Origin: an uncultured Gammaproteobacteria bacterium
GTDB lineage: Bacteria; Patescibacteriota; Microgenomatia; Daviesbacterales; UBA10151
Direction of reading: 5' to 3'
Assembly (NCBI GenBank): GCA_964500725.1
Contig: CAZCNP010000002.1
Coordinates: forward strand, 133,347-197,346
DNA: 64,000 nt
Each line of letters begins with the position of its first letter. The first letter of the stretch is position 1. A program made the translations under genes and the position numbers. The notes under the pieces are model-generated. The model had not been told where the DNA came from and did no database searches. It was given only the letters and a program-made list of their open reading frames with translations. This document shows positions 16,592 to 58,849 of the stretch, in pieces.

Positions 16592-17967
16592 GATAGTCCG
16601 ATTCCTTTATATATTATTCCAGCTTTTTGGAAGAGGCGTTTATCATATATTCTTCTGCCGTCAATGACAATAGGGTTTTTCATTAGTCTTTTGAAAAATA
16701 CGGGAGTTAATTTGATATATTCTTTCCAAGAAGTGATGATAATTGTTGCATCAGCATTTTGAATTGCTTCCTCTACAGTGCTGGTTAAAATTATTGAAAG
16801 ATCAGCTAATTTTGTAGGTACATTGTTTTTTTGGTATACCATTGGGTCATGTACAATAACTTTGGCATTTTCTGCAAGTAATTTTTCTATTACCGTGAAT
16901 GCGGGTGATTCGCGGGTATCATCCGTGTTAGGTTTAAAAGATAATCCCAATATGGCTATTCTTTTTCCAGTCAAATTTTTTCCTAAGGCCTTTTTCAGCA
17001 GTGAAACTAACCGGTATGGTTGGGTTTGATTGATACCGATAACACTTTTTATAAGTTTTGGTTCACTTCCTAATTCGTCGGCAAAACTGGCTAAAGCTTG
17101 TACATCTTTAGGAAAACAGCTTCCTCCAAAACCACATCCGGAAAAAATGTAACTTAATATTCCCGGTTTAATGCGAACATTCCCACTTATGGGACTGAGC
17201 CTTTTATCCAGATGTACCCCTTTCCATACATCTATGACATCAATATTGCCAGCATGTTCTGCGATTCTGGCAATTTCATTTGAGTAACTGATTAGAGTTG
17301 CCAGTAAAGCATTAGCAGCATATTTTGTCATTTCTGCGGTCCAAAGATTGGTAAAGATTTTTTCAGCCGATATTGACTCATAAATTTTGGCAAATTTTTT
17401 ACCGCTTTTGATATCAATTTGTCCGATGATAATCCTATCAGGAGTTAGCGCATCCTCCAAAGCACTGCCTTCCCTTAAGAATTCCGGATTCATGCAAATT
17501 CCAAAACTACCAACACTTTTTTTAGAATATTTTTCCAATATTGGTTTAATAATTTTTTCAGTTACACCGGGTAAAATCGTAGATTTGACTGCTACAACCT
17601 GGTAGTTTTTGATTTTTGCCATGGCTTCCCCGATTTGTTTTGCAGCTTGTTTAATATAAGAGAGGTCTATTGTCTTGTTAGTAGTTGGTGTCCCAACCGC
17701 GATGATGGTAATTTCTGACTCTAAAACTGCTTTCTCAAGGTCAGTTGTAGCAAGAAGTCTTTTTTGTTTTAGTACTCTTTTTAGGTATTTATCAATTTCT
17801 GGTTCGTAAAAAGGTGATTTGCCAGCGTTGACTTTGGAAATTTTATTTTGGTCAGTATCAACACAAATTATTTGGTGACCTAATATAGCCAATGATATTC
17901 CGGTAACTAATCCTACATAACCTGTTCCAATAATAGCAATTTTCATAATGAGTTTTGCTGATACCAC
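16588..17967 (-). CDS. UDP-glucose/GDP-mannose dehydrogenase-family nucleotide-sugar 6-dehydrogenase.
   Basis: KIAIIGTGYVGLVTG Rossmann motif and GFGGSCFPKD catalytic Cys motif. Probable start MKIAIIG at 17946. Confidence 0.8.
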   Translation of the reverse strand: MVSAKLIMKIAIIGTGYVGLVTGISLAILGHQIICVDTDQNKISKVNAGKSPFYEPEIDKYLKRVLKQKRLLATTDLEKAVLESEITIIAVGTPTTNKTIDLSYIKQAAKQIGEAMAKIKNYQVVAVKSTILPGVTEKIIKPILEKYSKKSVGSFGICMNPEFLREGSALEDALTPDRIIIGQIDIKSGKKFAKIYESISAEKIFTNLWTAEMTKYAANALLATLISYSNEIARIAEHAGNIDVIDVWKGVHLDKRLSPISGNVRIKPGILSYIFSGCGFGGSCFPKDVQALASFADELGSEPKLIKSVIGINQTQPYRLVSLLKKALGKNLTGKRIAILGLSFKPNTDDTRESPAFTVIEKLLAENAKVIVHDPMVYQKNNVPTKLADLSIILTSTVEEAIQNADATIIITSWKEYIKLTPVFFKRLMKNPIVIDGRRIYDKRLFQKAGIIYKGIGLS

Positions 17968-19052
17968 AATAAAGTATTAGTTAAGCCTTGATCTAGTGAT
18001 ATTTCCGGATTATAGCCCAAATCTTTTTTGGCTTTTCCAATTCGCGGACAACGGCGGTTAGGACTATCGGTTAAATAGTTTTTGTCATGACTTTTTTCCA
18101 TAACTATCTTCCCCCGATAGCCTAAATGTTTAACTGCCAAATCTGCCATAAGTTTAGCTAAATCATACATAGAAATTTCCGGCTTCTCAACTCCAATGTT
18201 ATAACTTTCGGCTGCTTTACCTTTCAGTAATACTTTTAAGTATCCAACTACTGCATCTGTAACATAACAAAATGTCCGCGTGGGAGAGCCGGTAGAGAGT
18301 AAAACAATATCCTTATTTGGTAAAATATTCTTAGCAAAATCAGGAATAACTCTGCCGTCAGTTATTTTCAAACCCGGTCCATAATTATTAAAGGGCCTGA
18401 CTATTTTAATAGGTAAATTGTGTGCTCTTGAGAAATTGACACAAAGAGTTTCACCAAATCTTTTTGATTCATCATAGCAAGCCCTCGGACCAGTACAGGA
18501 GACATTTCCGCGGTAAGTTTCCGGAGTAGGAATATTTTCCGGAGTAGGATCGCCATATATTTCGCTTGAAGAAAAAAACAACAATCCTTTGACCGGTTTT
18601 TTTATCCCTTTTCTTTTAACCAAATAATTTAAGATGTTATAAAGGCCCTGAACATTGGCATTAATGGTTTCTATTGGGTATTGGCGGTAAAAGATTGGTG
18701 AGGCAATAGAGGCTGCATGAATTATGTAATCAAACCTGACGGAGAGATCAGGTTGGTATCTTGTAATATCTGCTTTAACTGTCTTCAGGTCATTTCTTTT
18801 ACTTAGCCACTCCGGTACTCCATTTATAAAAGTATCTAAAGCATATAGGGTAATTTTCTTTTTTGGATTTATATCATTCCACAGCAGAAGTGATTTAATA
18901 AAATAATAACCTAAAAACCCGTTAGCTCCGGTAAAAAGAATAGTTTGATTTTTCAGAAGTTCAAACTCTTTTTTGGCTTTTGTATAGATGTACTTCAGAT
19001 CATTTTCTTCAACAGGAGTATTATTTATTGACATTATTTCCAGACTTTCCAT
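17943..19052 (-). CDS. UDP-glucuronate decarboxylase-like extended SDR (UXS/ArnA C-terminal domain family).
   Basis: SSSEIYGDP...GPRACYDESKRFGETLC...DGRVIPDF closely matches the UXS signature (GPRACYDEGKR..ET, DGRVVSNF). Confidence 0.7.
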   Translation of the reverse strand: MESLEIMSINNTPVEENDLKYIYTKAKKEFELLKNQTILFTGANGFLGYYFIKSLLLWNDINPKKKITLYALDTFINGVPEWLSKRNDLKTVKADITRYQPDLSVRFDYIIHAASIASPIFYRQYPIETINANVQGLYNILNYLVKRKGIKKPVKGLLFFSSSEIYGDPTPENIPTPETYRGNVSCTGPRACYDESKRFGETLCVNFSRAHNLPIKIVRPFNNYGPGLKITDGRVIPDFAKNILPNKDIVLLSTGSPTRTFCYVTDAVVGYLKVLLKGKAAESYNIGVEKPEISMYDLAKLMADLAVKHLGYRGKIVMEKSHDKNYLTDSPNRRCPRIGKAKKDLGYNPEISLDQGLTNTLLWYQQNSL

Positions 19053-19807
19053 TTGGGATCTTCATTCCAAAGTTTATTTAGATTGTTGACATCAGGATAA
19101 GTATCCATTGAATGCCAGAAACCATTGTGAGCATATATAGTCAGTTGTCCTTCTTTAATTAATCTTTTTAAAGCATCGTGTTCATATTCCCCTTTACCGA
19201 TATAGTCAAAAATTTTCTTTTTAAATATCATAAAACCACCATTTATCCAGTCATTCAAAACGGGTTTTTCTAAAAACTGGTAAGCAACTCCGTTTTTATT
19301 CATCGTTAAGATGCCATATCTGCTTCTGGGGTGTACCCCTGTAATCGTTCCAATCAAATTATGATCTCTGTGGAATTCAACCAACTGCTTGATATTGATA
19401 TCCGAAACACCGTCTCCATACGTAACCATAAAACTTTCATCATTTTCCGGTATAAAATCTCTTATTCTTAAAATCCGTTCTCCCGGTAAGGTTTCTTGGC
19501 CGGTGTCTACAAAAGTGATTTTAAAGTCATCCTTGTTATTTTGGTTACGATGAATTTTTGCGTGTCCGGTTTTTGTATACAGAGTAAAATCATCAGTGAA
19601 ATATTTTTGATTAAGAAAATAATCTTTAATATAATCACCTTTATATCCCAAAGCAATGATAAATTCATTAAACCCGTAGTGGGAATAAATCTTCATGATA
19701 TGCCAAAGAATTGGTTGACTGCCAATAAATACCATTGGTTTTGGTTTAAACTCGGTTTCTTCTTTTAATCTGTATCCAAGCCCGCCGCAAAGAATAACTA
19801 CTTTCAT
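19034..19807 (-). CDS. rfbF: Glucose-1-phosphate cytidylyltransferase (RfbF/DdhA-like).
   Basis: MKVVILCGGLGYRLKEETEFKPKPMVFIGSQPILWHIMKIYSHYGFNEFIIALGYKGDYIKDYF is near-canonical for RfbF. Confidence 0.8.
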   Translation of the reverse strand: MKVVILCGGLGYRLKEETEFKPKPMVFIGSQPILWHIMKIYSHYGFNEFIIALGYKGDYIKDYFLNQKYFTDDFTLYTKTGHAKIHRNQNNKDDFKITFVDTGQETLPGERILRIRDFIPENDESFMVTYGDGVSDINIKQLVEFHRDHNLIGTITGVHPRSRYGILTMNKNGVAYQFLEKPVLNDWINGGFMIFKKKIFDYIGKGEYEHDALKRLIKEGQLTIYAHNGFWHSMDTYPDVNNLNKLWNEDPKWKVWK

Positions 19808-21715: not shown

Positions 21716-22885
21716 TCACTTATCTAATCTATCCTTATTAAGGATCTTTATTAAAATATTGCATATATAATCAACATCAGATTTAGTTAGTTTAAACGAA
21801 TAGGGCAGACTTATTGTAAAAGGAGATAAGGCATAAGAAATGACGTTTTGTTTTTGATAATTCTTTTCTTTGCAATATTGCTTATAGGCTGGTTGAGAAC
21901 TAACAGGATAAAAGAAAGGTCTGGTATCTATGCCATATTTTTTAAATTCATCCATGATTTTTTCCTTTTCAATTTGATATTTGCCACATAATACGGCATT
22001 AATCATCCAAAAGGAGCTTTTTGTGCCGGGGGTTTCGGAATTTAATTTTATATCATCTATATTTTCCAGCCTTTTTTTATACCACTCATAGACTTGTCTT
22101 TTTTTGGATACGAGTTCGTCAAGGCGTCTTAGTTGGGCAAGCGCTAAAGCGGCTTGAATATTAGTCCATTGGTAGTTGTAACCGATTTCCACAGACCAGA
22201 AGGTTTTTTCATTGTAAGGAATCATTCCATGGTGATAAAGCTGCTCAAATCGGTCAAATAACTTTTTGTTATTTGTTGTTATCATTCCACCTTGGCCGGA
22301 CATCATGATTTTTGTGGCATTAAAAGAAAAGGCGCTGACACCACCAAAAGTACCCGCTTTTTCTCCCTGATATTCGGCCCCCATTGCTTCTGCGGCATCT
22401 TCAATTACATAAATTTTATGTTTTTTGGCAATTGCTAAAATATTTTTCATATCCGGCATATTGCCATACAAATCTACCAACATCACCGCTTTGGTTTTAG
22501 GGGTAATAAGTTTTTCAAATGAAGCAGGGGAAAGGCACCAGGTTTTAGGGTCGATATCGGCAAATATAGGTATAGCGCCTACATAAGTAATGGGGGCAAC
22601 CGAGGCAACCCAAGTAATGTCAGGGACAATTACTTCATCTCCGGGTTTAATACCTAATCCTAACATAGCTAGATGAAGAGCTGCTGTGCAGCTGGAAACA
22701 GGTAAACAATATTTGATTCCGGTGTAATTTGAAAATTCTTTAATAAATTGGTTAAGATGCATATTCCTGTTTTCATACCAGCCAATTTTTATTGCTTCTG
22801 TAACAAGTTTTACTTCTGCGTTAGTTACGGAAGGACCGCCTGAAGGTATTTTCCTATAATTTTTTTTAGTGGGTTTTTTATTCAT
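21716..22885 (-). CDS. DegT/DnrJ/EryC1/StrS-family PLP-dependent sugar aminotransferase.
   Basis: CTAALHLAMLGLGIKPGDEVIVPDITWVAS. FSFNATKIMMSGQGGMITT retains the catalytic Lys. Confidence 0.8.
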   Translation of the reverse strand: MNKKPTKKNYRKIPSGGPSVTNAEVKLVTEAIKIGWYENRNMHLNQFIKEFSNYTGIKYCLPVSSCTAALHLAMLGLGIKPGDEVIVPDITWVASVAPITYVGAIPIFADIDPKTWCLSPASFEKLITPKTKAVMLVDLYGNMPDMKNILAIAKKHKIYVIEDAAEAMGAEYQGEKAGTFGGVSAFSFNATKIMMSGQGGMITTNNKKLFDRFEQLYHHGMIPYNEKTFWSVEIGYNYQWTNIQAALALAQLRRLDELVSKKRQVYEWYKKRLENIDDIKLNSETPGTKSSFWMINAVLCGKYQIEKEKIMDEFKKYGIDTRPFFYPVSSQPAYKQYCKEKNYQKQNVISYALSPFTISLPYSFKLTKSDVDYICNILIKILNKDRLDK

Positions 22886-22888
22886 AGA

Positions 22889-23968
22889 TTAATTAATATG
22901 TTTTATCCAGCGCAGGTCGTCTGAAATATAACCGTTGCTAATTAGCCATTCCAATTTTTGCAACCGGTAAAAATTAATATTTTCAAATTGCTCTTTTGTT
23001 AGGTTAATTTCTTTAAACTTTTTCAACATGGCTTTAACGCTATTTTTTACAGTCCAATTGCACTCAAATCCTGGAAATACCTTTTTGATTTTATCAAATG
23101 AAATCTTATAGTTTCGGGAATCCACGCCATCTTGAATTTTTCGGTCCTTGATTAATTCTTTATTAATTTGAGTATTTGTTTGGTTAATAAAATTAATCTC
23201 ACAACCCTGAACTTGTTTTTTAACGATTTTGGTAAGGTCTAATATTTTATAATTTTCTGAAGTACTACCGACATTAATAATTACTTTCTGACTTATCGGG
23301 GGAGTATATTCAACCGCATATTTGATGGCTTTGCAAATATCGTTTACACAAACATTGGGTCTCCAAGCCTGCCCATTGGAATTTAAAATGATTTTTCCGG
23401 TGGTATAAGCCATGGCGGTAAACATATTGATAACTAAATCAAATCTCATTCTTGGAGATAAACCAAAAGCGGTGGCAAACCTAAAAATAATCGGAGTAAA
23501 ATTTTTATCGGTAATTTTTGCTAAGTCCTGTTCTATTTGTACTTTATTTAATGAATAAGGAGTTTGAGGGAAAACCGGTGAAGTCTCGTCAGAATATCCA
23601 TCAACCCCTTTACCGTATACTGAACAACTAGAGGAGAAAATAAATTTTATCCCTAACTTCTTACATAGTTTTGCTGTTTGTATAGTATGTTTTCTGACAG
23701 GATCATAGACTTTTACAAGATCCAAATTTTTAAAAGGATCATTCGAGATACCGGCTAAATAAATAACAGCATCAAACCCTTTGAGGTCTTTTGTGGTAAT
23801 ATCCCGAACATCTTTATATATTGTTTTGCAATCGTTTAGTGGGTAAAGCAGGCAATCTTTAATAAAACCTGTATCTATTCCCGAGACATTGTATCCATAT
23901 TGTACTAAATACGGTACCAAAACGCTGCCTATGTAACTTTGAGATCCTGTTACCAAAACTTTTTTCAT
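22889..23968 (-). CDS. NAD-dependent epimerase/dehydratase (extended SDR). Paralogous to 26636-27670.
   Basis: VLVTGSQSYIGSVL Rossmann motif. YSLNK (YxxxK). AYTTGKI...WRPNVCVNDIC shared with the paralog. Confidence 0.6.
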   Translation of the reverse strand: MKKVLVTGSQSYIGSVLVPYLVQYGYNVSGIDTGFIKDCLLYPLNDCKTIYKDVRDITTKDLKGFDAVIYLAGISNDPFKNLDLVKVYDPVRKHTIQTAKLCKKLGIKFIFSSSCSVYGKGVDGYSDETSPVFPQTPYSLNKVQIEQDLAKITDKNFTPIIFRFATAFGLSPRMRFDLVINMFTAMAYTTGKIILNSNGQAWRPNVCVNDICKAIKYAVEYTPPISQKVIINVGSTSENYKILDLTKIVKKQVQGCEINFINQTNTQINKELIKDRKIQDGVDSRNYKISFDKIKKVFPGFECNWTVKNSVKAMLKKFKEINLTKEQFENINFYRLQKLEWLISNGYISDDLRWIKHIN

Positions 23969-23971
23969 TGG

Positions 23972-24859
23972 CTAAATTTTATCATATTCTATGGTTTTCC
24001 TGAGGCCCATTTCGATGCTAAGCTTTGGGTGCCAGTTTATGGCTTGTTTTATTTTTGAGATATCGGCATAACTGGCCGATAAAGCATCGGTCGGCATTTG
24101 TTTTGACGTTTGATAGCCTCCACTTTTTTCGTAGATGTCATAAATTGTATTGATAATAGTTTGTACGCTTGTTAATCGCCCGGAACCAATATTAAAAATA
24201 CCGCTTTGGTTATACTCTAATACTAGTTTTGAAATAGCATCTGCCACGTCTTCTATGTAAATAAAGTCATTTTTGGCATCAGGGTTTCTGATTTCGGGTT
24301 CTTTTCCTTCTTTAAGACAATTTATAAGATATGAGATTAAGGAGGTGTTTTTTTGACCGGGTCCATAAACATAGAATAACCTTGTCCATAAAAAAAGCAT
24401 ATTATTTTCTATGGCAAATTCTTTGCCTATCCAATTAAGGGAATTTTTGGCGGCAGTAAAGCAATTGAAGGGTTCAACAGGCAAATCTTCCGATAATTTA
24501 CCCGGTATTTTGCCATATTCCCAGACACTACCTGTTACCAGCACTTTTCTACAATTTATTTTTAGCAATAATTGAATTAACTCTAATCCGTACTTTAAAT
24601 TCCGGATACTGTTTTTGGCACCGTAATCAGGTATTCCTTCCCATGCTAGATGGATTGTTGCATCCGGCTTAAATTTTTCTAAATCACCAGCCCAGTCATG
24701 AATACCTTCCAGGTTGCCTTCTAAAAATCGGATACCATCAGAAGATTTTCCGCCGTGAGGGTTTCTGGTAAGAAGCAATAAATCATTTTTCCCATTATCA
24801 AGCTTTTGGGTAACATATTTTCCAATAAAACCAGTTCCACCAGTGATGAAAATCCTCAT
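23972..24859 (-). CDS. NAD(P)-dependent sugar nucleotide epimerase/reductase (extended SDR, ~295 aa).
   Basis: MRIFITGGTGFIGKYV. Its size and its position after the cupin epimerase suggest a 4-reductase. Confidence 0.6.
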   Translation of the reverse strand: MRIFITGGTGFIGKYVTQKLDNGKNDLLLLTRNPHGGKSSDGIRFLEGNLEGIHDWAGDLEKFKPDATIHLAWEGIPDYGAKNSIRNLKYGLELIQLLLKINCRKVLVTGSVWEYGKIPGKLSEDLPVEPFNCFTAAKNSLNWIGKEFAIENNMLFLWTRLFYVYGPGQKNTSLISYLINCLKEGKEPEIRNPDAKNDFIYIEDVADAISKLVLEYNQSGIFNIGSGRLTSVQTIINTIYDIYEKSGGYQTSKQMPTDALSASYADISKIKQAINWHPKLSIEMGLRKTIEYDKI

Positions 24860-25419
24860 ACTTTTAATCCGCCGTACTTTTTAACAAACTCCTTGAAGCT
24901 TTGAGCTTTGGTATCCCTTTCAGAGATATCGGCAGGGGTCTTTATGGGCCAGTTAATGGCTAGATTGGGGTCATTCCACCTGATATTGTCATAACTCTCA
25001 GGTATAAAATACTCATCCATTTTATATAGTATTTGGCAATTAGGAGTTAGAGTACACATACACGGGGCACAGCCTTTGGGAATATAAATCTGATTCTTTT
25101 TTTCTGCAGATACCACAATCTGAATCCACTTACCAAAAGTTTTTTGTTTTGGTCTTAGATCGATAATGGTAAAAAGTATTTCTCCGGAGATTACCCGGAT
25201 TAATTTTGTTTCAGCGTATGGAGGATGTTGGAAGTGGATACCCCTGACTGTCCACTTCTCTTTGCTAAGAGAATGACTTTCCTGAATCCAATCCGTAACC
25301 AAACCGTGTTTTGCAAATATTTCTGCATCATAAGTTCTCATAAAAAATCCACGGGAATCAATATTTGGTTCAAGCTGAATTTCAAAAACACCCTTAATTT
25401 GTTTTTCTTCAATAACCAT
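24856..25419 (-). CDS. RmlC-like cupin, nucleotide-sugar 3,5-epimerase family.
   Basis: SRGFFMRTYD and VRGIHFQHPPYAETKLIRVISGEILFTIIDLRP are RmlC signatures. Confidence 0.7.
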   Translation of the reverse strand: MVIEEKQIKGVFEIQLEPNIDSRGFFMRTYDAEIFAKHGLVTDWIQESHSLSKEKWTVRGIHFQHPPYAETKLIRVISGEILFTIIDLRPKQKTFGKWIQIVVSAEKKNQIYIPKGCAPCMCTLTPNCQILYKMDEYFIPESYDNIRWNDPNLAINWPIKTPADISERDTKAQSFKEFVKKYGGLKV

Positions 25420-25437
25420 AAGTACTATTTTACAACT

Positions 25438-26631
25438 TTAAATAATCTTTTGAACTATTTGAAGTAAGCTCTTTTTAGGAGATACTAAAAATGTTTTGCA
25501 ACCTACTTCCTGCCCGGTTTGTTTATCCCGTATATCATCTCCAATAAAAATAGCTTTTGTTAAATCAATCTGGTGATCACGGCTGGCTTGTAGGAGTAAC
25601 CCTGGTTTTGGCTTTCGGCATTGACATCCTTCGTCCCATCCGTGGGTACAGACATAGATTCCATCTATTTTTGCCCCATTATTATTTAATTCCTTCAACA
25701 TATTCTTATGGATTAAATCTAAATCCTTTTTACTGAGAAAGCCCCTGGCTACCCCTGCTTGATTTGAAATGATAAATACCCTATATTCGTTATCGTTTAA
25801 AAGCTTTATTGCTTGAGTTGAATCCGGAAGAAATTTAAATTCCTTCCAGCTTTTAACATAGTCAGCCTTAGGAGCTTTTTTATTAATTACGCCGTCTCTA
25901 TCTAAAAATATTACCTTTTTGGGAATGAGGAACTTATTTATAATTTTTAATTTTTGCAGATCTCCAATACTATAATATTTTTGATCTGTTAAATACCCGG
26001 CAAGAGCCTCTTTTCTTATCAGCTTCGGCAATATTTCATTCTCAAACTTACAGTTTCCCTGAGGAAGCAACTTTAGGACTTTTTTATTGGCTATAAAAAA
26101 GCCTATATCAACAGCATTCAGATTTTTTTCTTTCCGATCAGGATCATATCCGGTGACGTAACCATTTTCTATCAGGATATTATTCTTTGTGGAATTATCT
26201 AAATTAGAAAAAGCGGTAATTAATATTTCAGAAGGATGGTCCTTGAAGAAATTAATATGCTTTTTAAGCTGTAGCGGCCAATAATTATCGCAGTATAGCA
26301 GCAAGAAATATTCATTTAGAAGTTTTTGTGCATTTTTGATTCGTATACCGCTTTTGTTTTCCAGCCCCTTTTCATCTAAAAACGGAGTATATGAATATTT
26401 AATCTTCATACCAAAGCTTGAACCATCACCGAAATATTTTTGGATTTTATCTTCCAAGTAACCGGTCAAAAGGACGATCTCCTTTATACCATTATCTTTT
26501 AATAAATTTATTAAGTATTCCAGAAAGGGTTTGCCGTTTATAGGAATTAAAGGTTTAGGATTTTTAAGTGTAAATGGCCGGAGTCTTCTTCCTTCGCCAC
26601 CTGCTAAAATTACAGCCTGGTTTATCTTCAT
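25438..26631 (-). CDS. Bifunctional fusion: N-terminal sugar-1-phosphate nucleotidyltransferase (HddC-like) and C-terminal D,D-heptose-1,7-bisphosphate phosphatase (GmhB-like HAD).
   Basis: N-terminus ILAGGEGRRLRPFT..KPLIPI (GGxGxRL). C-terminus VIFLDRDGVINKK...CQCRKPKPG...FIGDDIRD (GmhB DxD and Zn-binding CxC-like). Confidence 0.7.
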   Translation of the reverse strand: MKINQAVILAGGEGRRLRPFTLKNPKPLIPINGKPFLEYLINLLKDNGIKEIVLLTGYLEDKIQKYFGDGSSFGMKIKYSYTPFLDEKGLENKSGIRIKNAQKLLNEYFLLLYCDNYWPLQLKKHINFFKDHPSEILITAFSNLDNSTKNNILIENGYVTGYDPDRKEKNLNAVDIGFFIANKKVLKLLPQGNCKFENEILPKLIRKEALAGYLTDQKYYSIGDLQKLKIINKFLIPKKVIFLDRDGVINKKAPKADYVKSWKEFKFLPDSTQAIKLLNDNEYRVFIISNQAGVARGFLSKKDLDLIHKNMLKELNNNGAKIDGIYVCTHGWDEGCQCRKPKPGLLLQASRDHQIDLTKAIFIGDDIRDKQTGQEVGCKTFLVSPKKSLLQIVQKII

Positions 26632-26635
26632 GATT

Positions 26636-27670
26636 TTAAGTCCAGTAGAGGTTTTTATCTATTTTTCTCTGTTCAAGCAAGTATTTAACTTGTGGCAGGC
26701 GGTTACATTTCCTGCCTCTGAAATCTTCCTCGGTAAAATCGATTGATTTAAAAAATTCTACCAATTCTTTACCCCCTTTATCCAGATCCCACGCAGGTTT
26801 ATAGTAGTTTTTTAAGACTGATAAAATTTTTTTAAAAGAGACTTTGTAAGTTCTGGAGTCATTGCCATGTTCTCCGGTAAATGTTAAAGAACTTCCTGAT
26901 ACAGCTCTTTGGGCAGCTTCAGCCAGATCCCTGACGGTATAGTTTCCGTTTTTGATACCAACGTTGAAAGATTGGTTGCCAACTAATCTTGCAGGTGCTT
27001 CTAGTCCGGCAATATATGCCGAGCAAACATCCCTAACATGTACTACCGGACGCCAAGGAGTACCATCACTTTTAATTTCAATCTTGCCTGTTGTATAGGC
27101 ACAGGCCACTAAGTTATTAAAAACAATGTCACATCTTAAGCTTGGACTGGCACCAAAAATCGTGGAAGGCCTGAAGCAAATAACAGTAAAATCATCTGAT
27201 GAAAGCTTTTTAAGTCCGCATTCTGCCTGCCATTTTGTTTTAGCATACTCTGTAATGGGATTTTTGGTGCTATTATCTTCATCTAACTCACTGGCGGTAT
27301 CAGATATTCCATACATGCTCTGAGAAGAAGAATAAATAAACCTTTTTACTCCTGCTTGTTTGGCCAACTTTGCCAATTTGATGGTAGCTTTATAATTTAT
27401 ATTTTTGGTAAGTAGGGGATTGAGTTGTCCTACCGGATCGTTTGAAAGAGCAGCCAGATGAATAATAAAATCTATGCCTTTGAGATCTTCTTTAGAGACT
27501 TGTCTAATATCTTTAGTGATTTGTTTAATTTTTGCTGAGGTTTTTGGTAAAGGACATAATTTTTGATAATAATTAGTATCAAAACCAACTACTTCATATC
27601 CTCGTTGTATTAAAATATCAGTCAATACTGATCCGATATACCCTAAATTTCCGGTGACAAGAATTTTCAT
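26636..27670 (-). CDS. NAD-dependent epimerase/dehydratase (extended SDR). Candidate GDP-heptose dehydratase or epimerase.
   Basis: MKILVTGNLGYIGSVL. YAKTK (YxxxK). Located inside the heptose gene block. Confidence 0.6.
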   Translation of the reverse strand: MKILVTGNLGYIGSVLTDILIQRGYEVVGFDTNYYQKLCPLPKTSAKIKQITKDIRQVSKEDLKGIDFIIHLAALSNDPVGQLNPLLTKNINYKATIKLAKLAKQAGVKRFIYSSSQSMYGISDTASELDEDNSTKNPITEYAKTKWQAECGLKKLSSDDFTVICFRPSTIFGASPSLRCDIVFNNLVACAYTTGKIEIKSDGTPWRPVVHVRDVCSAYIAGLEAPARLVGNQSFNVGIKNGNYTVRDLAEAAQRAVSGSSLTFTGEHGNDSRTYKVSFKKILSVLKNYYKPAWDLDKGGKELVEFFKSIDFTEEDFRGRKCNRLPQVKYLLEQRKIDKNLYWT

Positions 27671-27675
27671 ATAAA

Positions 27676-28281
27676 TTATTCTTTTGTATTATTTTCTTCA
27701 AGATAATCAAAATAGTTTTTAAAGTATTTGGTCATTAGGTGCAAGATGACGGAGTGTATTCCCTCAACTAGTTCATATTCGCCTTTTTTGGTTTTAACTT
27801 TAATCTTGGCATCGGCTAATTTATTAAGAAGTCCACCATCGAAACCTGATACACCAATTACTGGAAGCCGATATCTTTTTGCCAGCTTAACTGCTTTAAC
27901 AACATTCATTGAATTACCGGAAGATGAAATTGCAATTACGGCATCTCCTTCTTTAATATAGTTTTGCAAGGGTCCGGCGAAAATCATTTCAAAAGAGACA
28001 TCATTAGCCCAGGCGGTTAATTCTTCTTCCGTGGTGGGGATACGAATTGCCTGAAACCGGCGAATATTTTTATCCAGGTGATGAGCAAAAACAGTTTTAT
28101 TGAAATCAGCTACAAAGTGTGTTGCCATTGCTAGCGATCCGCCGTTTCCAAATACATAAATTTTGCCATCCCTCTCATAAGTTGCCTGCAAAATATTTAC
28201 TGCCTTTGCGATCTCTTCGTGAGGCAAAGTCTGTAATATTTTAACGCTTTTTTCAATATAGTTAACTATATATTGTTTCAT
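27676..28281 (-). CDS. gmhA: Phosphoheptose (sedoheptulose-7-P) isomerase, SIS domain.
   Basis: KIYVFGNGGSLAMATHFVADF...AISSSGNS matches the GmhA SIS motifs. Confidence 0.75.
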   Translation of the reverse strand: MKQYIVNYIEKSVKILQTLPHEEIAKAVNILQATYERDGKIYVFGNGGSLAMATHFVADFNKTVFAHHLDKNIRRFQAIRIPTTEEELTAWANDVSFEMIFAGPLQNYIKEGDAVIAISSSGNSMNVVKAVKLAKRYRLPVIGVSGFDGGLLNKLADAKIKVKTKKGEYELVEGIHSVILHLMTKYFKNYFDYLEENNTKE

Positions 28282-29291
28282 TTTAGATTAAATATACTAT
28301 TTGAAACCACTTCCACTCCGGAATGAACGAATTTAATAGGGACCTCCTGAAAATTTAGGAGATTATTTCTCCTGGCAGCTTTTTTGATAGCTGCTTTAAC
28401 AGCTTCCCTTTTTTTTGGTGAAACAAGAAAAAGAAGACATCCGCCTCCACCTGCACCTAATAATTTTCCTCCCCATGCTCCGTTACTGAATCCAGTTGAA
28501 TAAAGTTTGTCGATAATATTGTTGGAAATCTTGGATGCCAGCTTTCTTTTTTCTAGCCAATTCTCATGAAGTATCCCGCCCAGAGATTTAAAATCTCCTT
28601 TTAGGAGTTTTTCTTTAAATAAGTCAACTGATTCTGCCATTGATTTTAGCCTTTCGAAATTAGACCGGATTCCTGATTTTTGTTCTATCAGAATATCTGA
28701 AGCTTGCCTTGTGATACCGGTAAAAAAGATTAACATGTGATTTTCTAAATCGATCCGTTTTTTATAATCTAAAAGTATAGGTTCTATGTCTACAGTCTCA
28801 TCCGGATTAAATTTAAAAACATTAAAACCACCAAAGCTGGCAGCGTATTGGTCTTGTTTGCCAATAGGATCTTTGATTAGATCAATCTCGATTTTGCACG
28901 CCTTTTCAGCCAAGTCTTTTTTATCCAGTCTTTTTCCCAGGTAAGCAGAGAATCCTTTTATCAGCGCTACTGTAAAACTCGATGAGGCACCGAGGCCGGT
29001 ACCAACTTTCATATGTGAAAAAGTGCCTATTTCCATATAATCATTTATATTTAAGATAGCCATTGTTTCCCTGATACGATTATTTTTTAAATCCTTAGCG
29101 TATTTTACGTTTTCAATTTCAGAATAACGAGCAATGATTCCTTGCAGCAAAGGAGCAGGGTTAATAGCGACATAAACGTATTTGTCTATAGTAGCGGAGA
29201 TAACCTTACCTTGATGTAATCTATAAAAATCCGGTAAATCCGTTCCGCCGCCAACAAAACTGATTCTGAGTGGAGCTCTTACAATAATCAT
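28278..29291 (-). CDS. hddA: GHMP-family sugar kinase, D-glycero-alpha-D-manno-heptose-7-phosphate kinase-like.
   Basis: RAPLRISFVGGGTDLPDFY N-terminus. GTGLGASSSFTVAL GHMP ATP-binding motif. GAGGGGC C-terminal motif. Confidence 0.7.
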   Translation of the reverse strand: MIIVRAPLRISFVGGGTDLPDFYRLHQGKVISATIDKYVYVAINPAPLLQGIIARYSEIENVKYAKDLKNNRIRETMAILNINDYMEIGTFSHMKVGTGLGASSSFTVALIKGFSAYLGKRLDKKDLAEKACKIEIDLIKDPIGKQDQYAASFGGFNVFKFNPDETVDIEPILLDYKKRIDLENHMLIFFTGITRQASDILIEQKSGIRSNFERLKSMAESVDLFKEKLLKGDFKSLGGILHENWLEKRKLASKISNNIIDKLYSTGFSNGAWGGKLLGAGGGGCLLFLVSPKKREAVKAAIKKAARRNNLLNFQEVPIKFVHSGVEVVSNSIFNLK

Positions 29292-31695: not shown

Positions 31696-32418
31696 ATGAG
31701 TGAGAAACCAATAATTGAAATGACACCAAGAGCTGCCCCGATAGAATTTTCTGAAAGCGAACAATGGTGGCAGGGTGCAGAAAAAGCCTATAATTTGCTT
31801 TGTAATGACAGGCCAGCTAAACCCTGTGACATTCTTTACTTTTTCGGCCGTTCTTATTTTGATGCACCCAAGAAAAGTTTTTATGGTTTAGCAGTCAATT
31901 TATATCAGCAAGGGATGGTTAGAAAAATTATAGTCCCCGGCACAGAGGGAGAACGACTGGGTGAAACCATACCCGGAATGGCTCACCCTGGTAAAACGGC
32001 AATGAAAAACCGTTTAGTAAGAATGGGTGTTGCAGAAGAAGATGTAGTATTCAGCAAGCCAGGATATCACACTAAACAAGAAGGTGATGCTTTTTTGGAT
32101 TATTCCATGGAAAATTCTCTGCATAGAGCAATAGCTTTTACTAATCCACATCAGATAGTGCGGGCAATGCTCGGTCTTGTCAGAACAATTAATGATAAGA
32201 GTTTATCCCTTGAAACTTATACTGCTGTACCTGATCCAGAAAAATTTGATTGGGGGAGGATGGTGAAAGGTTCCCAAGGGCAAAAGCTTGAACCGGTATT
32301 CAAACATTTTTATGAAGAACTCTCCAGAATTTCCCGTTATCAGCAAAAAGGTGATCTGGCTGGTTTTGAGGAATTGTTTGAATATATGAATATTCGAAAC
32401 AGCAGAAGACCTACTTAG
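31696..32418 (+). CDS. DUF218 (YdcF/ElyC/SanA)-like protein. Paralog 3.
   Basis: IAFTNPHQIVRAMLGL core motif. VPGTEGE... upstream is similar to YdcF-like proteins. Confidence 0.45.
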   Translation: MSEKPIIEMTPRAAPIEFSESEQWWQGAEKAYNLLCNDRPAKPCDILYFFGRSYFDAPKKSFYGLAVNLYQQGMVRKIIVPGTEGERLGETIPGMAHPGKTAMKNRLVRMGVAEEDVVFSKPGYHTKQEGDAFLDYSMENSLHRAIAFTNPHQIVRAMLGLVRTINDKSLSLETYTAVPDPEKFDWGRMVKGSQGQKLEPVFKHFYEELSRISRYQQKGDLAGFEELFEYMNIRNSRRPT

Positions 32419-33689
32419 ACTATTTTGGGTTCCGGGATTGGGATAATAAACTTTCCGCCGGCTTCTTTAAACCATGGTTCCTTTTTTTCCATAATATGTT
32501 TGGCATAATTCCAGGCAGTAATTAAAATATAATCCGGAGTGCGTTTTTTTAAAGTGTCTTCCGGCAAGATAGGAATATGGGTTCCGGGGGTAAATTTCCC
32601 GATTTTAGAAGGAGCGCTGTCAGTAATGTAATCAATTACATCAGCTCCGATATTACAGTATTGCAAAAGCGTGGTTGCTTTTGCCGATGCTCCATAAGCA
32701 GTAACTTTTTTACCCTTCTTCTTTAGATCCAAAAGCATTTTAGTAAGTTTCTTTTTCACAAGAGGCGGTCTTGCAGCAAACTTTTTATAAGCAGCTAGTT
32801 TATTCAGTCCTAACATTTTTTCATTTTCCAAAAAGTTTCCTACTGATTTATCGATGGGAAAAGGAGATGAGGAGTGTGCCGCGAAAACAATAATTCCTCC
32901 CCCATGTGTATCTGTATGAATTACCTCTATCATCTTCATAGAGTGCATCTTTAAAAGATATAAAAGGGGGGAGACAGCATGGAAACAAATATGTTCATGA
33001 TAAGTATTATCAAATTCGTTATGAGCCAAAAGATCCGCTAAATATTGAACCTCAAAAACAAAGATGCCGTTATTATCCAATAATTCCTTTACTCCTTGAA
33101 AAATATCATGTAAAGCATCCGTATGAGCTAAAGTGTTGTTTGATGTAATTATCCCGGCTTTGCCGTATTTTTTTATCAGTTCCGGGACCTTTTTGCGGCT
33201 AAAAAAATCAGCAATAGTTTCAATACCGTTGCTATTGGCAATTTTAGCTATATTTTCTGCCGGATCTATCCCTAAAACCCTAGCCCCTAATTTTTTAAAA
33301 GGTTTTAGTAATACTCCGTCATTGCTTCCGATATCAATAGTTAATTGTTTTGATTGTTGGGGGAAACGTTTAAAAACTTCTCCAGCATATTCTTCAAAAT
33401 GCCTGACCAGCATAGGGGATGTTGAAGAAAAATAGTCATAATGGCGGTAAATATAAGCTCTGTCTACAATATGTAAGAGTTGGGCCAGGTGGCAGTTATG
33501 ACAGAAATAAACTTTAAGAGGGGCTTTAAATTCCGTTTGTTTTAACTGAGGTTTAGTTAGATATGAATTTGCAGGTGCAGCATTGCCCAGAGATAAATAA
33601 TTTGTTAATTCTTTGCTGCCGCAGATAAGACATTCATTACTTCTTCTGTAGAGTTTTTTGTCTTTAAGCGAATTTGTATTTTTTGACAT
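32415..33689 (-). CDS. Zn-ribbon SAM-dependent (C-)methyltransferase-like. Paralog 3 of 3.
   Basis: CLICGSKELTNYLSLGNAAPAN Zn-ribbon. TIDIGSNDGVLL motif. Collinear with 1135-2433 and 15311-16591. Confidence 0.6.
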   Translation of the reverse strand: MSKNTNSLKDKKLYRRSNECLICGSKELTNYLSLGNAAPANSYLTKPQLKQTEFKAPLKVYFCHNCHLAQLLHIVDRAYIYRHYDYFSSTSPMLVRHFEEYAGEVFKRFPQQSKQLTIDIGSNDGVLLKPFKKLGARVLGIDPAENIAKIANSNGIETIADFFSRKKVPELIKKYGKAGIITSNNTLAHTDALHDIFQGVKELLDNNGIFVFEVQYLADLLAHNEFDNTYHEHICFHAVSPLLYLLKMHSMKMIEVIHTDTHGGGIIVFAAHSSSPFPIDKSVGNFLENEKMLGLNKLAAYKKFAARPPLVKKKLTKMLLDLKKKGKKVTAYGASAKATTLLQYCNIGADVIDYITDSAPSKIGKFTPGTHIPILPEDTLKKRTPDYILITAWNYAKHIMEKKEPWFKEAGGKFIIPIPEPKIV

Positions 33690-34593
33690 ACTTTATATAA
33701 TCGGCAAGTCCCTTCTCTAAATCCATTTTTGGAAACCATCCGATAATTTTTTTGGCTTTCTTGTTGTCCATTGTACCCCGTTTTGGTCTGTCCTGTAAAT
33801 CTTTCACCTCGACTTCGAATTTAAAGTATTTCTTTAAAACATCAACAAATTGAAACAGACTAATAGCGTTACCGCCGCTTATATGAAATACTTCTTTGGC
33901 CGGGGCTTTTAAAGCAACATCGGCAATCCCTCTGACGAGATCTTTTACATAAATAAAATCCATGACAATATTTTTATTGATCCAGAATTTCTCGCCTCTT
34001 AAAATTTTACTTAAAATAATATTGCTTGCCCTTGAGTTCATGTCGCCAAAGCCATATATATTTGTGGTTCTGACCACATTCCAGTTGCTAAGTTCTGCTT
34101 TGGTTAAAAATTCCCCGCCTGCTTTTGATAATCCATAAGGAGTTTTAGGTACAAGTTGATCTTCCTCGTTGATCACATCTTCACAATCTCCATAAGCGGA
34201 TATGGAGGACATGAAAACAAATTTTTTAACGGGAAGACTTTTTATTGCTTCGACAATTTTGTAAGTTAAAGCAAGATCCTCTGTTATTTGTTTTGAAGAG
34301 ATGTTGATATCATTTGCGCGTTCTAAGGGAATTCCGGCCAGATGAATTAAGACATCAGGTTTTTCTTTTTTTAATATTTCTTCTCCCTTTTCTTCGAATT
34401 TTTTTCGATAGATTTTAGCCCCCTTTAGCAAAGTTTCTTTTTTAAACTTATTTATGTTTTTGGTGATTTTTGAGTTCCACTCAGTATAAAAAATAAAGGG
34501 ATCAATAATTACAACGTCATGTTTTCTTGAGATTAATTCACGGGTAAGCCACGACCCTACAAATCCACCGCCTCCTACTATGAGAATTTTCAT
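33664..34593 (-). CDS. NAD-dependent epimerase/dehydratase (extended SDR).
   Basis: MKILIVGGGGFVGSWL Rossmann motif. YGLSK (YxxxK). Confidence 0.6.
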   Translation of the reverse strand: MKILIVGGGGFVGSWLTRELISRKHDVVIIDPFIFYTEWNSKITKNINKFKKETLLKGAKIYRKKFEEKGEEILKKEKPDVLIHLAGIPLERANDINISSKQITEDLALTYKIVEAIKSLPVKKFVFMSSISAYGDCEDVINEEDQLVPKTPYGLSKAGGEFLTKAELSNWNVVRTTNIYGFGDMNSRASNIILSKILRGEKFWINKNIVMDFIYVKDLVRGIADVALKAPAKEVFHISGGNAISLFQFVDVLKKYFKFEVEVKDLQDRPKRGTMDNKKAKKIIGWFPKMDLEKGLADYIKYVKKYKFA

Positions 34594-34720
34594 ATAAATG
34601 TTAAAGCGAGGATAGCAATGATTAAAGAAATAGTCAATAATTATTATTTATTATTGAACCAGAATACCTCGCAACTTGCTGCGGGGATGAATGGTTCACA
34701 TAAGAACTCTCCCGAAGGGA

Positions 34721-34744
34721 TACTCCGCAGTAAACTGCGGAGTA
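34721..34744. promoter_or_regulatory. Perfect GC-rich hairpin (10-bp stem tactccgcag / ctgcggagta, 4-nt loop) in a divergent intergenic region, ~55 nt upstream of the 34798 start.
   Basis: Read directly: tactccgcagTAAActgcggagta, followed by gttcatttt. It is GC-rich against an AT-rich background. Confidence 0.35.
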
Positions 34745-34797
34745 GTTCATTTTAAGATCTTGTATTCTTATACTCTAATGATATATATTAATGAATA

Positions 34798-36015
34798 ATG
34801 AAAAACGGAAAAACATTAAGAGTTAGTCATGCACAGTCCGTATACGGAGATGAGGAGATAAACAGAGTTGTAGCGGTACTGAAAGAACACAGAACTTTAA
34901 TCGGCCGGGAGGTGGATGAATTCGAAAAAAGGGTTGCCAGTCTTTTTAAGAAGAACTACGGTATTATGGTAAACTCCGGTTCTTCGGCAAACTTAGTGGC
35001 AGTTGAACTTTTAGATCTTCCTGCCGGCAGTGAGGTTATTACTCCGCTTCATACTTTCTCAACAACAGTAGCGCCTCTCGTAAATAAAGGATTAATTCCG
35101 GTTTTTGTCGATGTTAAACCAGGGGAGTATGTTATAGATGTAGATAAAATAGAAAAAGCAATTTCCAAAAAAACTAAAGCTTTAATGATACCTATCCTGT
35201 TTGGTTTAGTGCCGGATATGGAGAAACTACAAAAATTAGCTAAGAGTTACAACCTGATTTTCTTGGAAGATTCCTGTGATGCAATAGTCTCCCTGTTTAA
35301 GAATAAGCCAACCGGTGTGTATTCGGATATAACAACAACCTCGGTTTATGGGTCACATGTTATTACTGCAGGTGGCGGAGGGGGAATGGTTATGGTAAAT
35401 AGCGAAAAGTACAGGGATAAGGCAAAAATGTTAAGGGGATGGGGTCGCAGCTCTGCTGTATTTTCAGAATCGGAAGATATTGATGTGCGCTTTTCCCGAA
35501 AAATTGATAATGTTTTATATGATGGCAAGTTTATCTTTGATAGTGTTGCCTATAATTTTCTTCCTTTAGAAATAGGCGCAGCTTTTGGCAATGTGCAGCT
35601 TAACAAGTTAAAGGAGTTCTGCAGAATCAGAGAAAGGAATTATAAGTTTCTGGTTAAAGTTTACAATAAATATTCAGATTATTTTATCCTTCCGGTAGTG
35701 CATAAAGACTCAAGGCCGCAATGGCAGATCTTTCCCTTAACTATCAGGGAAAATGCTCCTTTTACCAGAATTGAATTCGTGAGGTTCTTGGAGGAAAATA
35801 ATGTACAGACCAGACCATTGTCAACAGGTAATGTTTTAAGACAGCCCGGCTTTAAAAATATTCCACATAGGGATACTCAAAAAGAATACCCGTTCTCTGA
35901 TGAGGTATTTGAGCGGGGTTTCATGACGGGTATACATCAAGGCTTAACCCTGGAGCATTTAAACAGATTAGAAGAGGTGGTTGATTCTTTCTTCAAAAAA
36001 CTAAAATCCCGTTGA
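34798..36015 (+). CDS. DegT-family PLP/PMP-dependent sugar 3-dehydratase (ColD / E1-type; the PLP lysine is replaced by histidine).
   Basis: SVYGSHVITAGGGGGMVMV. The other two DegT paralogs have K at this position (FSFNATKIMMSGQGG, FSFYGNKVITTGEGG). Only two Cys in the whole protein. Confidence 0.65.
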   Translation: MKNGKTLRVSHAQSVYGDEEINRVVAVLKEHRTLIGREVDEFEKRVASLFKKNYGIMVNSGSSANLVAVELLDLPAGSEVITPLHTFSTTVAPLVNKGLIPVFVDVKPGEYVIDVDKIEKAISKKTKALMIPILFGLVPDMEKLQKLAKSYNLIFLEDSCDAIVSLFKNKPTGVYSDITTTSVYGSHVITAGGGGGMVMVNSEKYRDKAKMLRGWGRSSAVFSESEDIDVRFSRKIDNVLYDGKFIFDSVAYNFLPLEIGAAFGNVQLNKLKEFCRIRERNYKFLVKVYNKYSDYFILPVVHKDSRPQWQIFPLTIRENAPFTRIEFVRFLEENNVQTRPLSTGNVLRQPGFKNIPHRDTQKEYPFSDEVFERGFMTGIHQGLTLEHLNRLEEVVDSFFKKLKSR

Positions 36016-36053: not shown

Positions 36054-36908
36054 ATGCTGAAAGCTAAACTAGCTATAGTGACAGGAGGATCAAGGGGGAT
36101 TGGATTTGCTATCGCAAAGGAACTTACTGAAAAAGGAGCAGAAGTTATTATCTGTTCCCGAAATAACGATCAATTAAGTGAAGCAGTGAGCAAGCTTTCT
36201 ACCCCTTCAAAGCCGGCTTTTGGAATAGTAGCTGATGTATCAAAATTTGAAGATTGTCAGAAGTTAATTGATTTTGCCTATTCAAAAAGGGGAAGGATTA
36301 ATATATTGGTCAATAACGCCGGTATCTTTGGTCCGATTGGTTTGCTTGAGACAAATAACCCGGAAAAATGGGAAGAAGTTTTAGCAATCAATGTATTAAG
36401 TGCAGTGTATTGCTCTCAGTTGGTTATTCCATACATGAAAAAAAATGGGGGCGGGAAGATTATTAATTTAGCCGGCGCAGGCGTAGGCAGTCCTCATGCG
36501 CATCCAAGATTTAGCGGTTATTATACATCCAAATCAGCCATTGTAGGTTTTACTGAAACTATGGCAGAGGAGCTTAAAGAGGATAATATTCAGGTTAATG
36601 CGATTGCGCCCGGCGCGATTGCCTCAGAGTTACAATTTGATCTGCTAAAGATGGATAAAACTTTGGTAGGGGAAAATATGTACAAAACTGCAGAGCAGCT
36701 CCTGGAGCAGAATGATATTCCTATAAAATCTGCTGCGAAACTGGCAGCATTTTTGGCTTCGGAAAAAGCGAATCATATAACCGGCAGACTGCTTAGCTCT
36801 AAGTGGGACTCAATTGAGCAATTAGCAGAGATTGAAAGGTTTACCCAAAATAGATATCGATTACGAAGAATTGATAATAAAAAATTTTTTGAAAAAACTG
36901 ATGGATAA
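36054..36908 (+). CDS. Classical short-chain dehydrogenase/reductase.
   Basis: KLAIVTGGSRGIGFAIA, NNAG, YTSSK (YxxxK). Confidence 0.7.
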   Translation: MLKAKLAIVTGGSRGIGFAIAKELTEKGAEVIICSRNNDQLSEAVSKLSTPSKPAFGIVADVSKFEDCQKLIDFAYSKRGRINILVNNAGIFGPIGLLETNNPEKWEEVLAINVLSAVYCSQLVIPYMKKNGGGKIINLAGAGVGSPHAHPRFSGYYTSKSAIVGFTETMAEELKEDNIQVNAIAPGAIASELQFDLLKMDKTLVGENMYKTAEQLLEQNDIPIKSAAKLAAFLASEKANHITGRLLSSKWDSIEQLAEIERFTQNRYRLRRIDNKKFFEKTDG

Positions 36909-38235: not shown

Positions 38236-38239
38236 AAAG

Positions 38240-54352: not shown

Positions 54353-54356
54353 AGTT

Positions 54357-58824: not shown

Positions 58825-58849
58825 TCTCCTTTGTTAAAATGCTTTTGTC

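Follow-up and report, generated by a model that had tools for sequence, protein, structure and literature searches.

A DegT-fold protein of E1/RfbH type without [2Fe-2S] ligands, a predicted sugar 3-dehydratase in a large glycan locus

The C3-deoxygenating sugar enzymes studied so far differ in their needs: E1 and SpnQ carry an iron-sulfur cluster and depend on a reductase, and ColD has neither (PMC8987622). How, then, does a protein work that resembles E1 most closely and has lost most of the E1 cluster ligands? This question is raised by a DegT-fold protein of 405 amino acids (aa) encoded in a 64,000-nucleotide (nt) stretch of contig CAZCNP010000002.1 (positions 133,347 to 197,346), here called the window, which is one very large glycan locus with 34% G+C. 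We consider it probable, though well short of certain, that the protein is a pyridoxamine 5'-phosphate (PMP)-dependent nucleoside diphosphate (NDP)-sugar C3-dehydratase of E1/RfbH descent that has no [2Fe-2S] cluster, works by ColD-type chemistry and sends its product toward a branched 3-deoxy sugar. The fold, the active-site histidine, the loss of ligands, the absence of an E3 reductase gene and the genomic associations described below are direct observations.

The open reading frame (ORF) starts with ATG, and Pfam DegT_DnrJ_EryC1 (PF01041; DegT/DnrJ/EryC1/StrS) covers the protein end to end with 233 bits. An AlphaFold2 (AF2) model was obtained at a mean predicted local distance difference test (pLDDT) of 87.8, and Foldseek matched it to many DegT aminotransferases at a template-modelling (TM) score of about 0.8, confirming a fold-type I DegT domain. 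The lysine that forms the internal aldimine in DegT/DnrJ/EryC1/StrS aminotransferases is absent; His187 occupies the site, within the active-site stretch SVYGSHV, and the motif SVYGSHVITAGGGGG is present in the protein. Two independent HMMER alignments to solved structures place His187 on His220 of E1 and His188 of ColD. In the alignment to Protein Data Bank (PDB) chains, the E1 mutant H220K (3bb8) has a lysine in the His187 column and the ColD mutant H188N (3b8x) an asparagine. S186-H187 falls on S187-H188 of ColD, so that a serine precedes the histidine as in ColD. The two other DegT paralogs of the window keep the Schiff-base lysine (FSFNATK, 21716-22885; FSFYGNK, 41729-43156). An earlier reading of the window, made from the sequence only, had suggested that a histidine replaces the lysine that binds pyridoxal 5'-phosphate (PLP) and that the protein is a ColD/E1-type PMP enzyme, not an ordinary aminotransferase. 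Both suggestions held when the protein was aligned with ColD and E1: histidine stands in the Schiff-base column, no lysine aligns there, most of the E1 cysteine ligands are gone, and the closest match is E1/RfbH.

We then asked how widely the histidine is conserved. Among the best 150 of 674 hits at E <= 1e-30 (50%-identity representatives, from a search of 1.84 billion cluster representatives), all 148 alignable sequences have the equivalent of His187. It is likewise invariant in an alignment of 105 sequences from the protein's clade (46-100% identity to it), and therefore is no chance substitution. The equivalents of E1 D191, D194 and Y217 are also retained in the window protein and in the clade.

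Of the solved structures, the Yersinia dehydrase E1 (3bcx) is the best match (227 bits, 36% identity), Escherichia coli ColD is second (141 bits), and ordinary sugar aminotransferases come next. Foldseek ranks the two in the same order, with E1 at TM 0.86 (34% identity) and ColD at TM 0.81 (26%). The best NCBIfam model is RfbH (NF011936, an equivalog), which is matched from end to end at 319.6 bits, below its curated cut-off of 423. Because score, identity and TM are all higher for E1, the protein is assigned to the E1 lineage and not to that of ColD. The sequence-only reading had favoured a ColD-like enzyme; this survives as a statement about chemistry, given the missing ligands and the lack of E3 in the window, and not as one about descent.

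The E1 cluster is reportedly bound by a C-x57-C-x1-C-x7-C motif (C193, C251, C253, and C261), said to have been described by Agnihotri et al. in 2004. We checked the spacing C193...C251-x-C253-x7-C261 on the E1 sequence and it fits; the same numbering check located His220 and cysteines at positions 192, 193, 251, 253, 257, and 261. The window protein has only two cysteines, C160 and C275, as had been counted before. Three of the four ligands are replaced (C251 by Ser, C253 by Val, and C261 by Ile), position C192 is a Ser, and the sole remaining ligand equivalent is C160, which corresponds to C193. Even this position is no conserved ligand: 69 of the 105 clade sequences have Cys there and the other 36 have Ala. 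Position C251 is Ser in 104 of the 105, and the other two positions are occupied by Leu, Ile or Val. The protein is thus predicted to carry no [2Fe-2S] cluster.

No gene for the reductase was found either. No plant-type ferredoxin (Fer2) motif occurs in the six frames of the 64-kb window, and Pfam scans found no FAD/NAD reductase domain among the window ORFs, the few ORFs without a Pfam match being covered by the ferredoxin-motif test only. The same holds for related loci: a one-genome-per-species scan gave 80 of them, the neighbourhood analysis took in 83, and none of the 83 has an E3-like ferredoxin-motif ORF of suitable size. The loss of cluster ligands together with the absence of an E3 gene argues for ColD-like chemistry. 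Experiments have established two His-type 3-dehydratases that have no cluster and use glutamate to regenerate PMP, namely ColD and the Campylobacter jejuni HS:5 enzyme (PMC8987622; PMC10440746), and in ColD the product is released by hydrolysis (PMC8987622).

From these features we infer how the 405-aa enzyme reacts, which amino donor it uses and what kind of sugar it takes. The C4 keto group of an NDP-4-keto sugar would condense with PMP to a ketimine, and His187 would take the C4' proton of PMP as the 3-OH leaves, giving a delta-3,4-ene intermediate. With neither cluster nor E3 at hand, this intermediate would be resolved as in ColD, by hydrolysis and tautomerisation to an NDP-3-deoxy-4-keto sugar, ammonia and PLP. 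A transamination, presumably from L-glutamate, would restore PMP. The product would probably pass to the divergently encoded C-methyltransferase and short-chain dehydrogenase/reductase (SDR; see the table), yielding a branched 3-deoxy sugar for the surface-glycan locus.

Cluster-less enzymes of this kind are common around the 405-aa protein in sequence space: a cysteine equivalent to C251 is missing in 92 and present in 58 of the best 150 cluster representatives. The hosts of the clade include Patescibacteria, uncultured Gammaproteobacteria/Coxiellaceae, DPANN and Methanosarcinales archaea, Ensifer/Sinorhizobium, Ruegeria, sphingomonads, Bacteroidota, and Chlamydiae; rhizobia, Roseobacter-group bacteria, and both DPANN-type and other archaea are thus among them. 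At NCBI, two close homologues go by generic aminotransferase names. As far as alignments and gene order can tell, the protein belongs to a large, phylogenetically wide E1-like clade with neither cluster ligands nor a reductase partner.

The gene neighbourhoods of this clade bear on its function. A glucose-1-phosphate cytidylyltransferase (RfbF) is encoded in 59 of the 83 loci, within 3 kb in 48 of them. An SDR with the motif TSDKCY, whose Asp-Lys pair we take to be the hallmark of CDP-glucose 4,6-dehydratase (RfbG; assigned by motif, with no model score), occurs in 33 loci and a related SDR with an SSDK motif in a further 13, so that 46 of the 83 loci have an SDR of the Asp-Lys type. Recurrent neighbours within 6 kb are C-methyltransferases (14 loci), thiamine diphosphate (ThDP) enzymes (15), and split transketolase-like proteins (6-7), all of them kinds of enzyme for which 4-keto sugars would be likely substrates. 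In more distant members of the clade (46-52% identity) the typical operon reads RfbF-RfbG-X(-C-methyltransferase), where X is the homologue; RfbF-RfbG-X with the TSDKCY motif is found in 33 loci, and a C-methyltransferase follows the homologue in 14 cases. Cluster-less members are also found fused to dehydratase-like SDRs, RmlD-like SDRs or RmlC-like epimerases, and never to a reductase. Neighbours and fusions of this kind, with no electron-transfer partner among them, fit a 4-keto-sugar 3-dehydratase whose product would undergo epimerisation and reduction or C-branching, and, by elimination, suggest ColD-type chemistry.

To see which sugar might be involved, we turned to the close relatives. 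A neighbour-joining tree separates them into paralogous clades that often occur together in one locus. The window protein belongs to clade A, whose members are 68-95% identical to it. In the window and in loci L005 and L091, an SDR-C-methyltransferase pair faces the clade-A gene; of all direct neighbours, these two divergent genes are the most conserved among the closest relatives. Their conservation, together with the link between X and a C-methyltransferase in the distant operons, leads us to propose the order 3-dehydration, C-methylation, 4-reduction, with the C-methyltransferase as a candidate consumer of the 3-deoxy-4-keto product. Elsewhere a heptose operon is the immediate divergent neighbour (L007, L088, L092, L093, and L094), RfbF faces the gene (L090), or a UXS-UGDH pair follows it (L005, L007, and L092). 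Clade-B genes follow UXS-UGDH in L005, L006, L089, and L092; the clade-B member P0041 in L089 instead faces a heptose operon and has Gln at the position of E1 F345. An RfbG-type gene stands directly beside the clade-A gene in none of the nine loci examined, and the only Asp-Lys-type SDR in the close-relative loci, in L007, lies beside a separate paralog. We also tried to fix the substrate by clade-A synteny across the nine further contexts; the neighbours differ among them, and synteny left the choice undecided.

The same loci contain further His-type proteins. Two cluster-less E1-like paralogs (clades A, B or C; 55-66% identical) lie a few kb apart in L005 (10001-11215 and 13681-14910), L089, L092, and L007, and such pairs in one locus imply sub-functionalisation toward different sugars. 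In three loci the clade-A gene is followed by an SDR and by another His-type DegT protein, a distant one with about 30% identity and the motif FSTYIAHIV (L088:11299-12501, L093:11270-12475, and L094:11291-12490), and a ColD-like His-type DegT (FSFFVGHH) is encoded at L090:19241-20437. Hence several lysine-less DegT subfamilies share the glycan loci of the relatives; the window has just one.

Within the window, essentially all ORFs of at least 100 aa were annotated with Pfam; several gave no match. Two modules could supply an NDP-4-keto sugar without a 4,6-dehydratase. The NDP-heptose module contains two SDRs whose best solved relative is PDB 6vo6, which we take to be Cj1427, a GDP-heptose C4-dehydrogenase. 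This module has no 4,6-dehydratase. Behind its second 6vo6-like SDR comes a Lys-type LegC/PseC-like aminotransferase, which suggests that a 4-amino-heptose is made alongside an epimerised heptose. The other module is an operon 15 kb from the 405-aa gene, headed by a cytidylyltransferase (19034-19807) that scores just under the TIGR02623 cut-off (289.8 versus 300.25 bits). The SDR that comes next (17943-19052) was considered as a CDP-glucose 4,6-dehydratase and rejected: its 53 bits to TIGR02622 fall short of the cut-off of 278, compared with 67 bits to RmlB and 151 to human UXS1 (UDP-glucuronate decarboxylase), and it carries the UXS motifs SSSEIYGDP, CYDESK, and DGRV. The UGDH-like gene that follows gives 305 bits to BceC. 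Taken by itself, the operon suggests a route from CDP-glucose through CDP-glucuronate to a 4-keto-pentose or pentose with C-methylation; our literature search found no mention of CDP-glucuronic acid.

An NDP-4-keto-heptose from the neighbouring heptose module and an NDP-4-keto-pentose from the RfbF/UGDH-like/UXS-like operon are about equally plausible substrates, and CDP-4-keto-6-deoxyglucose, for which the dehydratase gene would have to lie elsewhere in the genome, ranks last. The position of E1 F345 is Leu in most clade members, including those linked to RfbG, and Gln in the subclade of the window. We tentatively suggest, as a possibility that we would not yet favour over its negation, that this Gln-bearing clade has left the 6-deoxyhexose route and dehydrates a 4-keto-heptose or 4-keto-pentose made without a 4,6-dehydratase, the product then being C-methylated.

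Could the protein instead follow E1 and SpnQ in mechanism, with a general cellular reductase reducing the delta-3,4-ene-PMP adduct and PMP being kept? E1 is its closest characterised homologue, and SpnQ does draw on general ferredoxin or flavodoxin reductases with no dedicated E3; both enzymes, however, need their own [2Fe-2S] cluster to take electrons (PMC8987622). With three of four ligands gone, the fourth unconserved, and no reductase linked in the 83 loci or in any fusion, we hold this reading to be highly improbable. A somewhat better case, although still a poor one, can be made for a His-type PMP/PLP enzyme that is no dehydratase and acts on a 4-keto sugar by transamination at C4 or by a related reaction, for instance epimerisation. 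Several amino-sugar genes lie in the glycan locus of the window, which nevertheless already has two ordinary Lys-type aminotransferases. The 405-aa protein lacks the Schiff-base lysine and cannot form an internal aldimine, and the clade conserves the equivalents of E1 D194 and Y217, residues that were reportedly mutated towards His in retro-evolution work that turned E1 into an aminotransferase. Amino transfer is known from E1 variants and from SpnQ deprived of a reductase, but wild-type E1 and ColD had no transaminase activity under the conditions in which SpnQ did (PMC8987622).

A different challenge concerns the substrate alone. The enzyme might act on CDP-4-keto-6-deoxy-D-glucose or GDP-4-keto-6-deoxymannose in a 3,6-dideoxyhexose branch (abequose/paratose/ascarylose-like or colitose-like), with the 4,6-dehydratase encoded outside the window. 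Such a branch had been proposed by the sequence-only reading, and the RfbF-RfbG-X operons of the distant members, the closeness to E1, and the presence in the window of both a glucose-1-phosphate cytidylyltransferase and an Fcl-like gene speak for it. The window, however, has neither an Asp-Lys (RfbG-type) 4,6-dehydratase nor a GDP-mannose 4,6-dehydratase (GMD), as judged by locus-derived RfbG queries, motif scans and Pfam scans. The cytidylyltransferase is coupled to an SDR of UXS type. A distance of 22 kb separates the Fcl-like gene from the 405-aa gene, and an Fcl-like gene lies within 3 kb of the homologue in only one of the 83 loci. In addition, no RfbG-type gene stands directly beside the clade-A gene in the nine loci examined, and clade-A proteins carry Gln where E1 has Phe and RfbG-linked members have Leu. 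The dideoxyhexose branch is therefore not secured, and we consider it unlikely, though less so than either of the mechanistic alternatives above.

Several points weigh against a cluster-less 3-dehydratase with ColD-type turnover. No characterised member of the clade was found, nor did a literature search on cluster-less E1 homologues return anything. Such turnover would require a site for glutamate or another amino donor in the protein, and SpnQ demonstrates that a His-type enzyme can transaminate without a reductase (PMC8987622). The classical substrate is not evidently made locally, as the window has no 4,6-dehydratase. The neighbours of clade A vary between genomes (heptose operon, UXS/UGDH pair, and C-methyltransferase pair), so there is no fixed partner. 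Finally, both the Gly-rich loop after His187 and the loop that replaces the cluster motif are modelled at low confidence; residues 216-223 have a pLDDT below 50, and the AF2 model does not resolve the latter loop. The features discussed here are listed in the following table.

Table 1. Positions in the window of the 405-aa gene, its key residues and the neighbouring features
Feature	Position	Strand	Basis
Operon of overlapping ORFs: glucose-1-phosphate cytidylyltransferase, UXS-like decarboxylase, UGDH-like dehydrogenase, TylC3-type C-methyltransferase; candidate substrate supply	15311..19807	-	TIGR02623, UXS1 and UGDH scores
NDP-heptose module: HddA-, GmhA- and HddC/GmhB-like proteins, two 6vo6-like SDRs, RmlC-like epimerase, reductase, Lys-type aminotransferase; candidate substrate supply	21716..29291	-	
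NDP-sugar C-methyltransferase of TylC3 type (424 aa), in one operon with the SDR at 33664..34593	32415..33689	-	Methyltransf_13/14
Extended SDR, 309 aa, divergent; candidate for 4-keto reduction or epimerisation in the sugar branch of the 405-aa enzyme	33664..34593	-	Pfam Epimerase/RmlD_sub_bind
Structured dispersed repeat of ~100 nt including the GC-rich hairpin; no functional part of the enzyme gene	34652..34755	-	Folding, synteny, metagenome copies
His-type DegT-fold enzyme gene (cluster-less E1/RfbH-like predicted sugar 3-dehydratase, clade A)	34798..36015	+	ORF, Pfam, NCBIfam, PDB, AF2 model, Foldseek
D158-S-C160-D161: Asp = E1 D191, Cys160 = E1 ligand C193, Asp = E1 D194	35269..35280	+	D191/D194 equivalents invariant
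His187 codon, predicted catalytic base in place of the Schiff-base Lys	35356..35358	+	Alignment to E1 His220 and ColD His188
Residues 217-232 (RSSAVFSESEDIDVRF), stretch replacing E1 C251-x-C253-x7-C261	35446..35493	+	Alignment; C251 to Ser in 104/105
Classical SDR, 284 aa, 38 nt downstream of the 405-aa gene	36054..36908	+	Pfam adh_short

The extended SDR of the divergent pair has no dehydratase-type motif. The classical SDR downstream is probably co-transcribed with the 405-aa gene, there being no terminator-like site found between the two; it is not among the recurrent neighbours of the homologues in the 83 loci. The downstream Gfo/Idh/MocA, CTP_transf_3 and SDR genes were considered as partners and rejected: in relatives this triple sits elsewhere in the locus, and it resembles a nonulosonic-acid module. 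In that module, at 36917-39756 (+) and 41729-44968 (-), Gfo/Idh/MocA is accompanied by a glyoxalase-fold insert, a PseF-like CMP-sugar synthetase, an SDR, a CBS-LegC-like aminotransferase and a GNAT protein; NeuB is encoded as well and, with 415.8 bits, exceeds its cut-off. The glyoxalase-fold gene is absent from the triple in L005, L007, and L089.

The GC-rich hairpin that had been pointed out upstream of the gene is real (34721-34744, a perfect 11-bp stem, in a 150-nt region that folds unusually well, z = -5.5); it is, however, part of a dispersed repeat and no conserved element of the gene. The orthologous spacers of L005 and L091 align with the two ends of the window's spacer and have no counterpart of the ~105 nt in its middle. 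We found the exact 24-mer in 12 metagenome contigs (L095-L106) with unrelated flanks, where it lies within a conserved element of ~100 nt (minus strand of the window). The repeat consists of two hairpins and a closing stem, with compensatory changes at seven pairs, and has no match in Rfam beyond a chance hit to a microRNA. A role as regulatory element of the 405-aa gene was thus rejected, given that the ~105-nt insertion is absent from L005 and L091 and is dispersed. These data suggest a dispersed repeat, similar to a miniature inverted-repeat transposable element, or a small RNA of genomes like those of the candidate phyla radiation (CPR). The repeat probably explains why public assemblies of the organism break 79 nt upstream of the 405-aa gene.

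Other parts of the locus add to the picture of an elaborate glycan. Three TylC3-type C-methyltransferase genes (Methyltransf_13/14), at 1135-2433, 15311-16591 and 32415-33689, all on the minus strand and none with an NCBIfam model match, imply several branched-chain sugars. A phosphonate cluster at 55263-60148 (+) suggests that the glycan is decorated with phosphonate: it encodes a fusion of PEP mutase with a cytidylyltransferase-like domain, a ThDP enzyme like phosphonopyruvate decarboxylase, an Fe-alcohol dehydrogenase, and a CDP-glycerol-type glycerophosphotransferase. Genes for an ABC-2 transporter are found at 53606-55139. Three large ORFs without a Pfam match, at 6005-9448 (1147 aa), 51402-53591 (729 aa), and 60154-62082 (642 aa), all on the plus strand, could be novel glycosyltransferases or polymerases.

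The ratio of 92 to 58 suggests that only a subgroup has specialised in the E1 cluster, and that even among E1 relatives the ColD-type way may prevail. The clade offers a natural test case for the evolution of the reductive mechanism, and generic aminotransferase names would be hiding a deoxygenation step in many glycan loci. In the window, the local context points to candidate routes to 3-deoxy-heptoses or 3-deoxy-pentoses. The pentose option would follow an ArnA/ArnB-like logic in which a dehydratase replaces the aminotransferase, possibly with CDP-glucuronate as an intermediate. The heptose option, with NDP-D-glycero-4-keto-heptose supplied by the Cj1427-like C4-dehydrogenase, would mean a natural 3-deoxy-heptose, a type of sugar so far made only in vitro (PMC10680097). 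In either case the surface glycan of a CPR-like bacterium would contain a 3-deoxy sugar that is branched by C-methylation.

The 3-dehydratases characterised so far are E1 and SpnQ, which have a cluster, and ColD and the C. jejuni heptose enzymes, which have none (PMC8987622, PMC10440746). How does the protein compare with them? With E1 (RfbH/DdhC/AscC, the CDP-6-deoxy-L-threo-D-glycero-4-hexulose 3-dehydrase of Yersinia and Salmonella) it shares the catalytic His column, D191, D194 and Y217, and, in more distant clade members only, the RfbF-RfbG operon context. Unlike E1, it lacks C251, C253 and C261 and an E3 partner gene, scores below the RfbH cut-off, has Gln in place of F345, and has no CDP-glucose 4,6-dehydratase nearby. 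SpnQ, the TDP-4-keto-2,6-dideoxyglucose 3-dehydrase, is likewise E1-like and His-type and has no dedicated E3 (PMC8987622), but it keeps the [2Fe-2S] motif that the window protein has lost and needs general reductases. ColD (WbdK, GDP-4-keto-6-deoxy-D-mannose 3-dehydratase) is similar in being a His-type PMP enzyme with a Ser-His dyad and no Fe-S cluster; it differs in lineage (26-27% identity) and in context, as the window has no GMD and the family context is of the CDP type (RfbF), not GDP-mannose. The GDP-heptose C3-dehydratases of C. jejuni HS:5/HS:11, also characterised and cluster-less (PMC10440746), are alike in their published description: they use PLP/PMP with glutamate and serve a heptose pathway (PMC10440746, PMC10680097). 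Their mechanism has been modelled on the C3-dehydratases of E. coli O55 and Y. pseudotuberculosis IVA (PMC10440746, PMC10680097). The natural C. jejuni route begins with a 4,6-dehydratase, which is absent from the window, whereas Cj1427 together with the C. jejuni C3-dehydratase gives GDP-D-glycero-3-deoxy-4-keto-heptose in vitro (PMC10680097). The heptose role of the C. jejuni enzyme matches the heptose-operon neighbourhood seen in the clade of the window protein.

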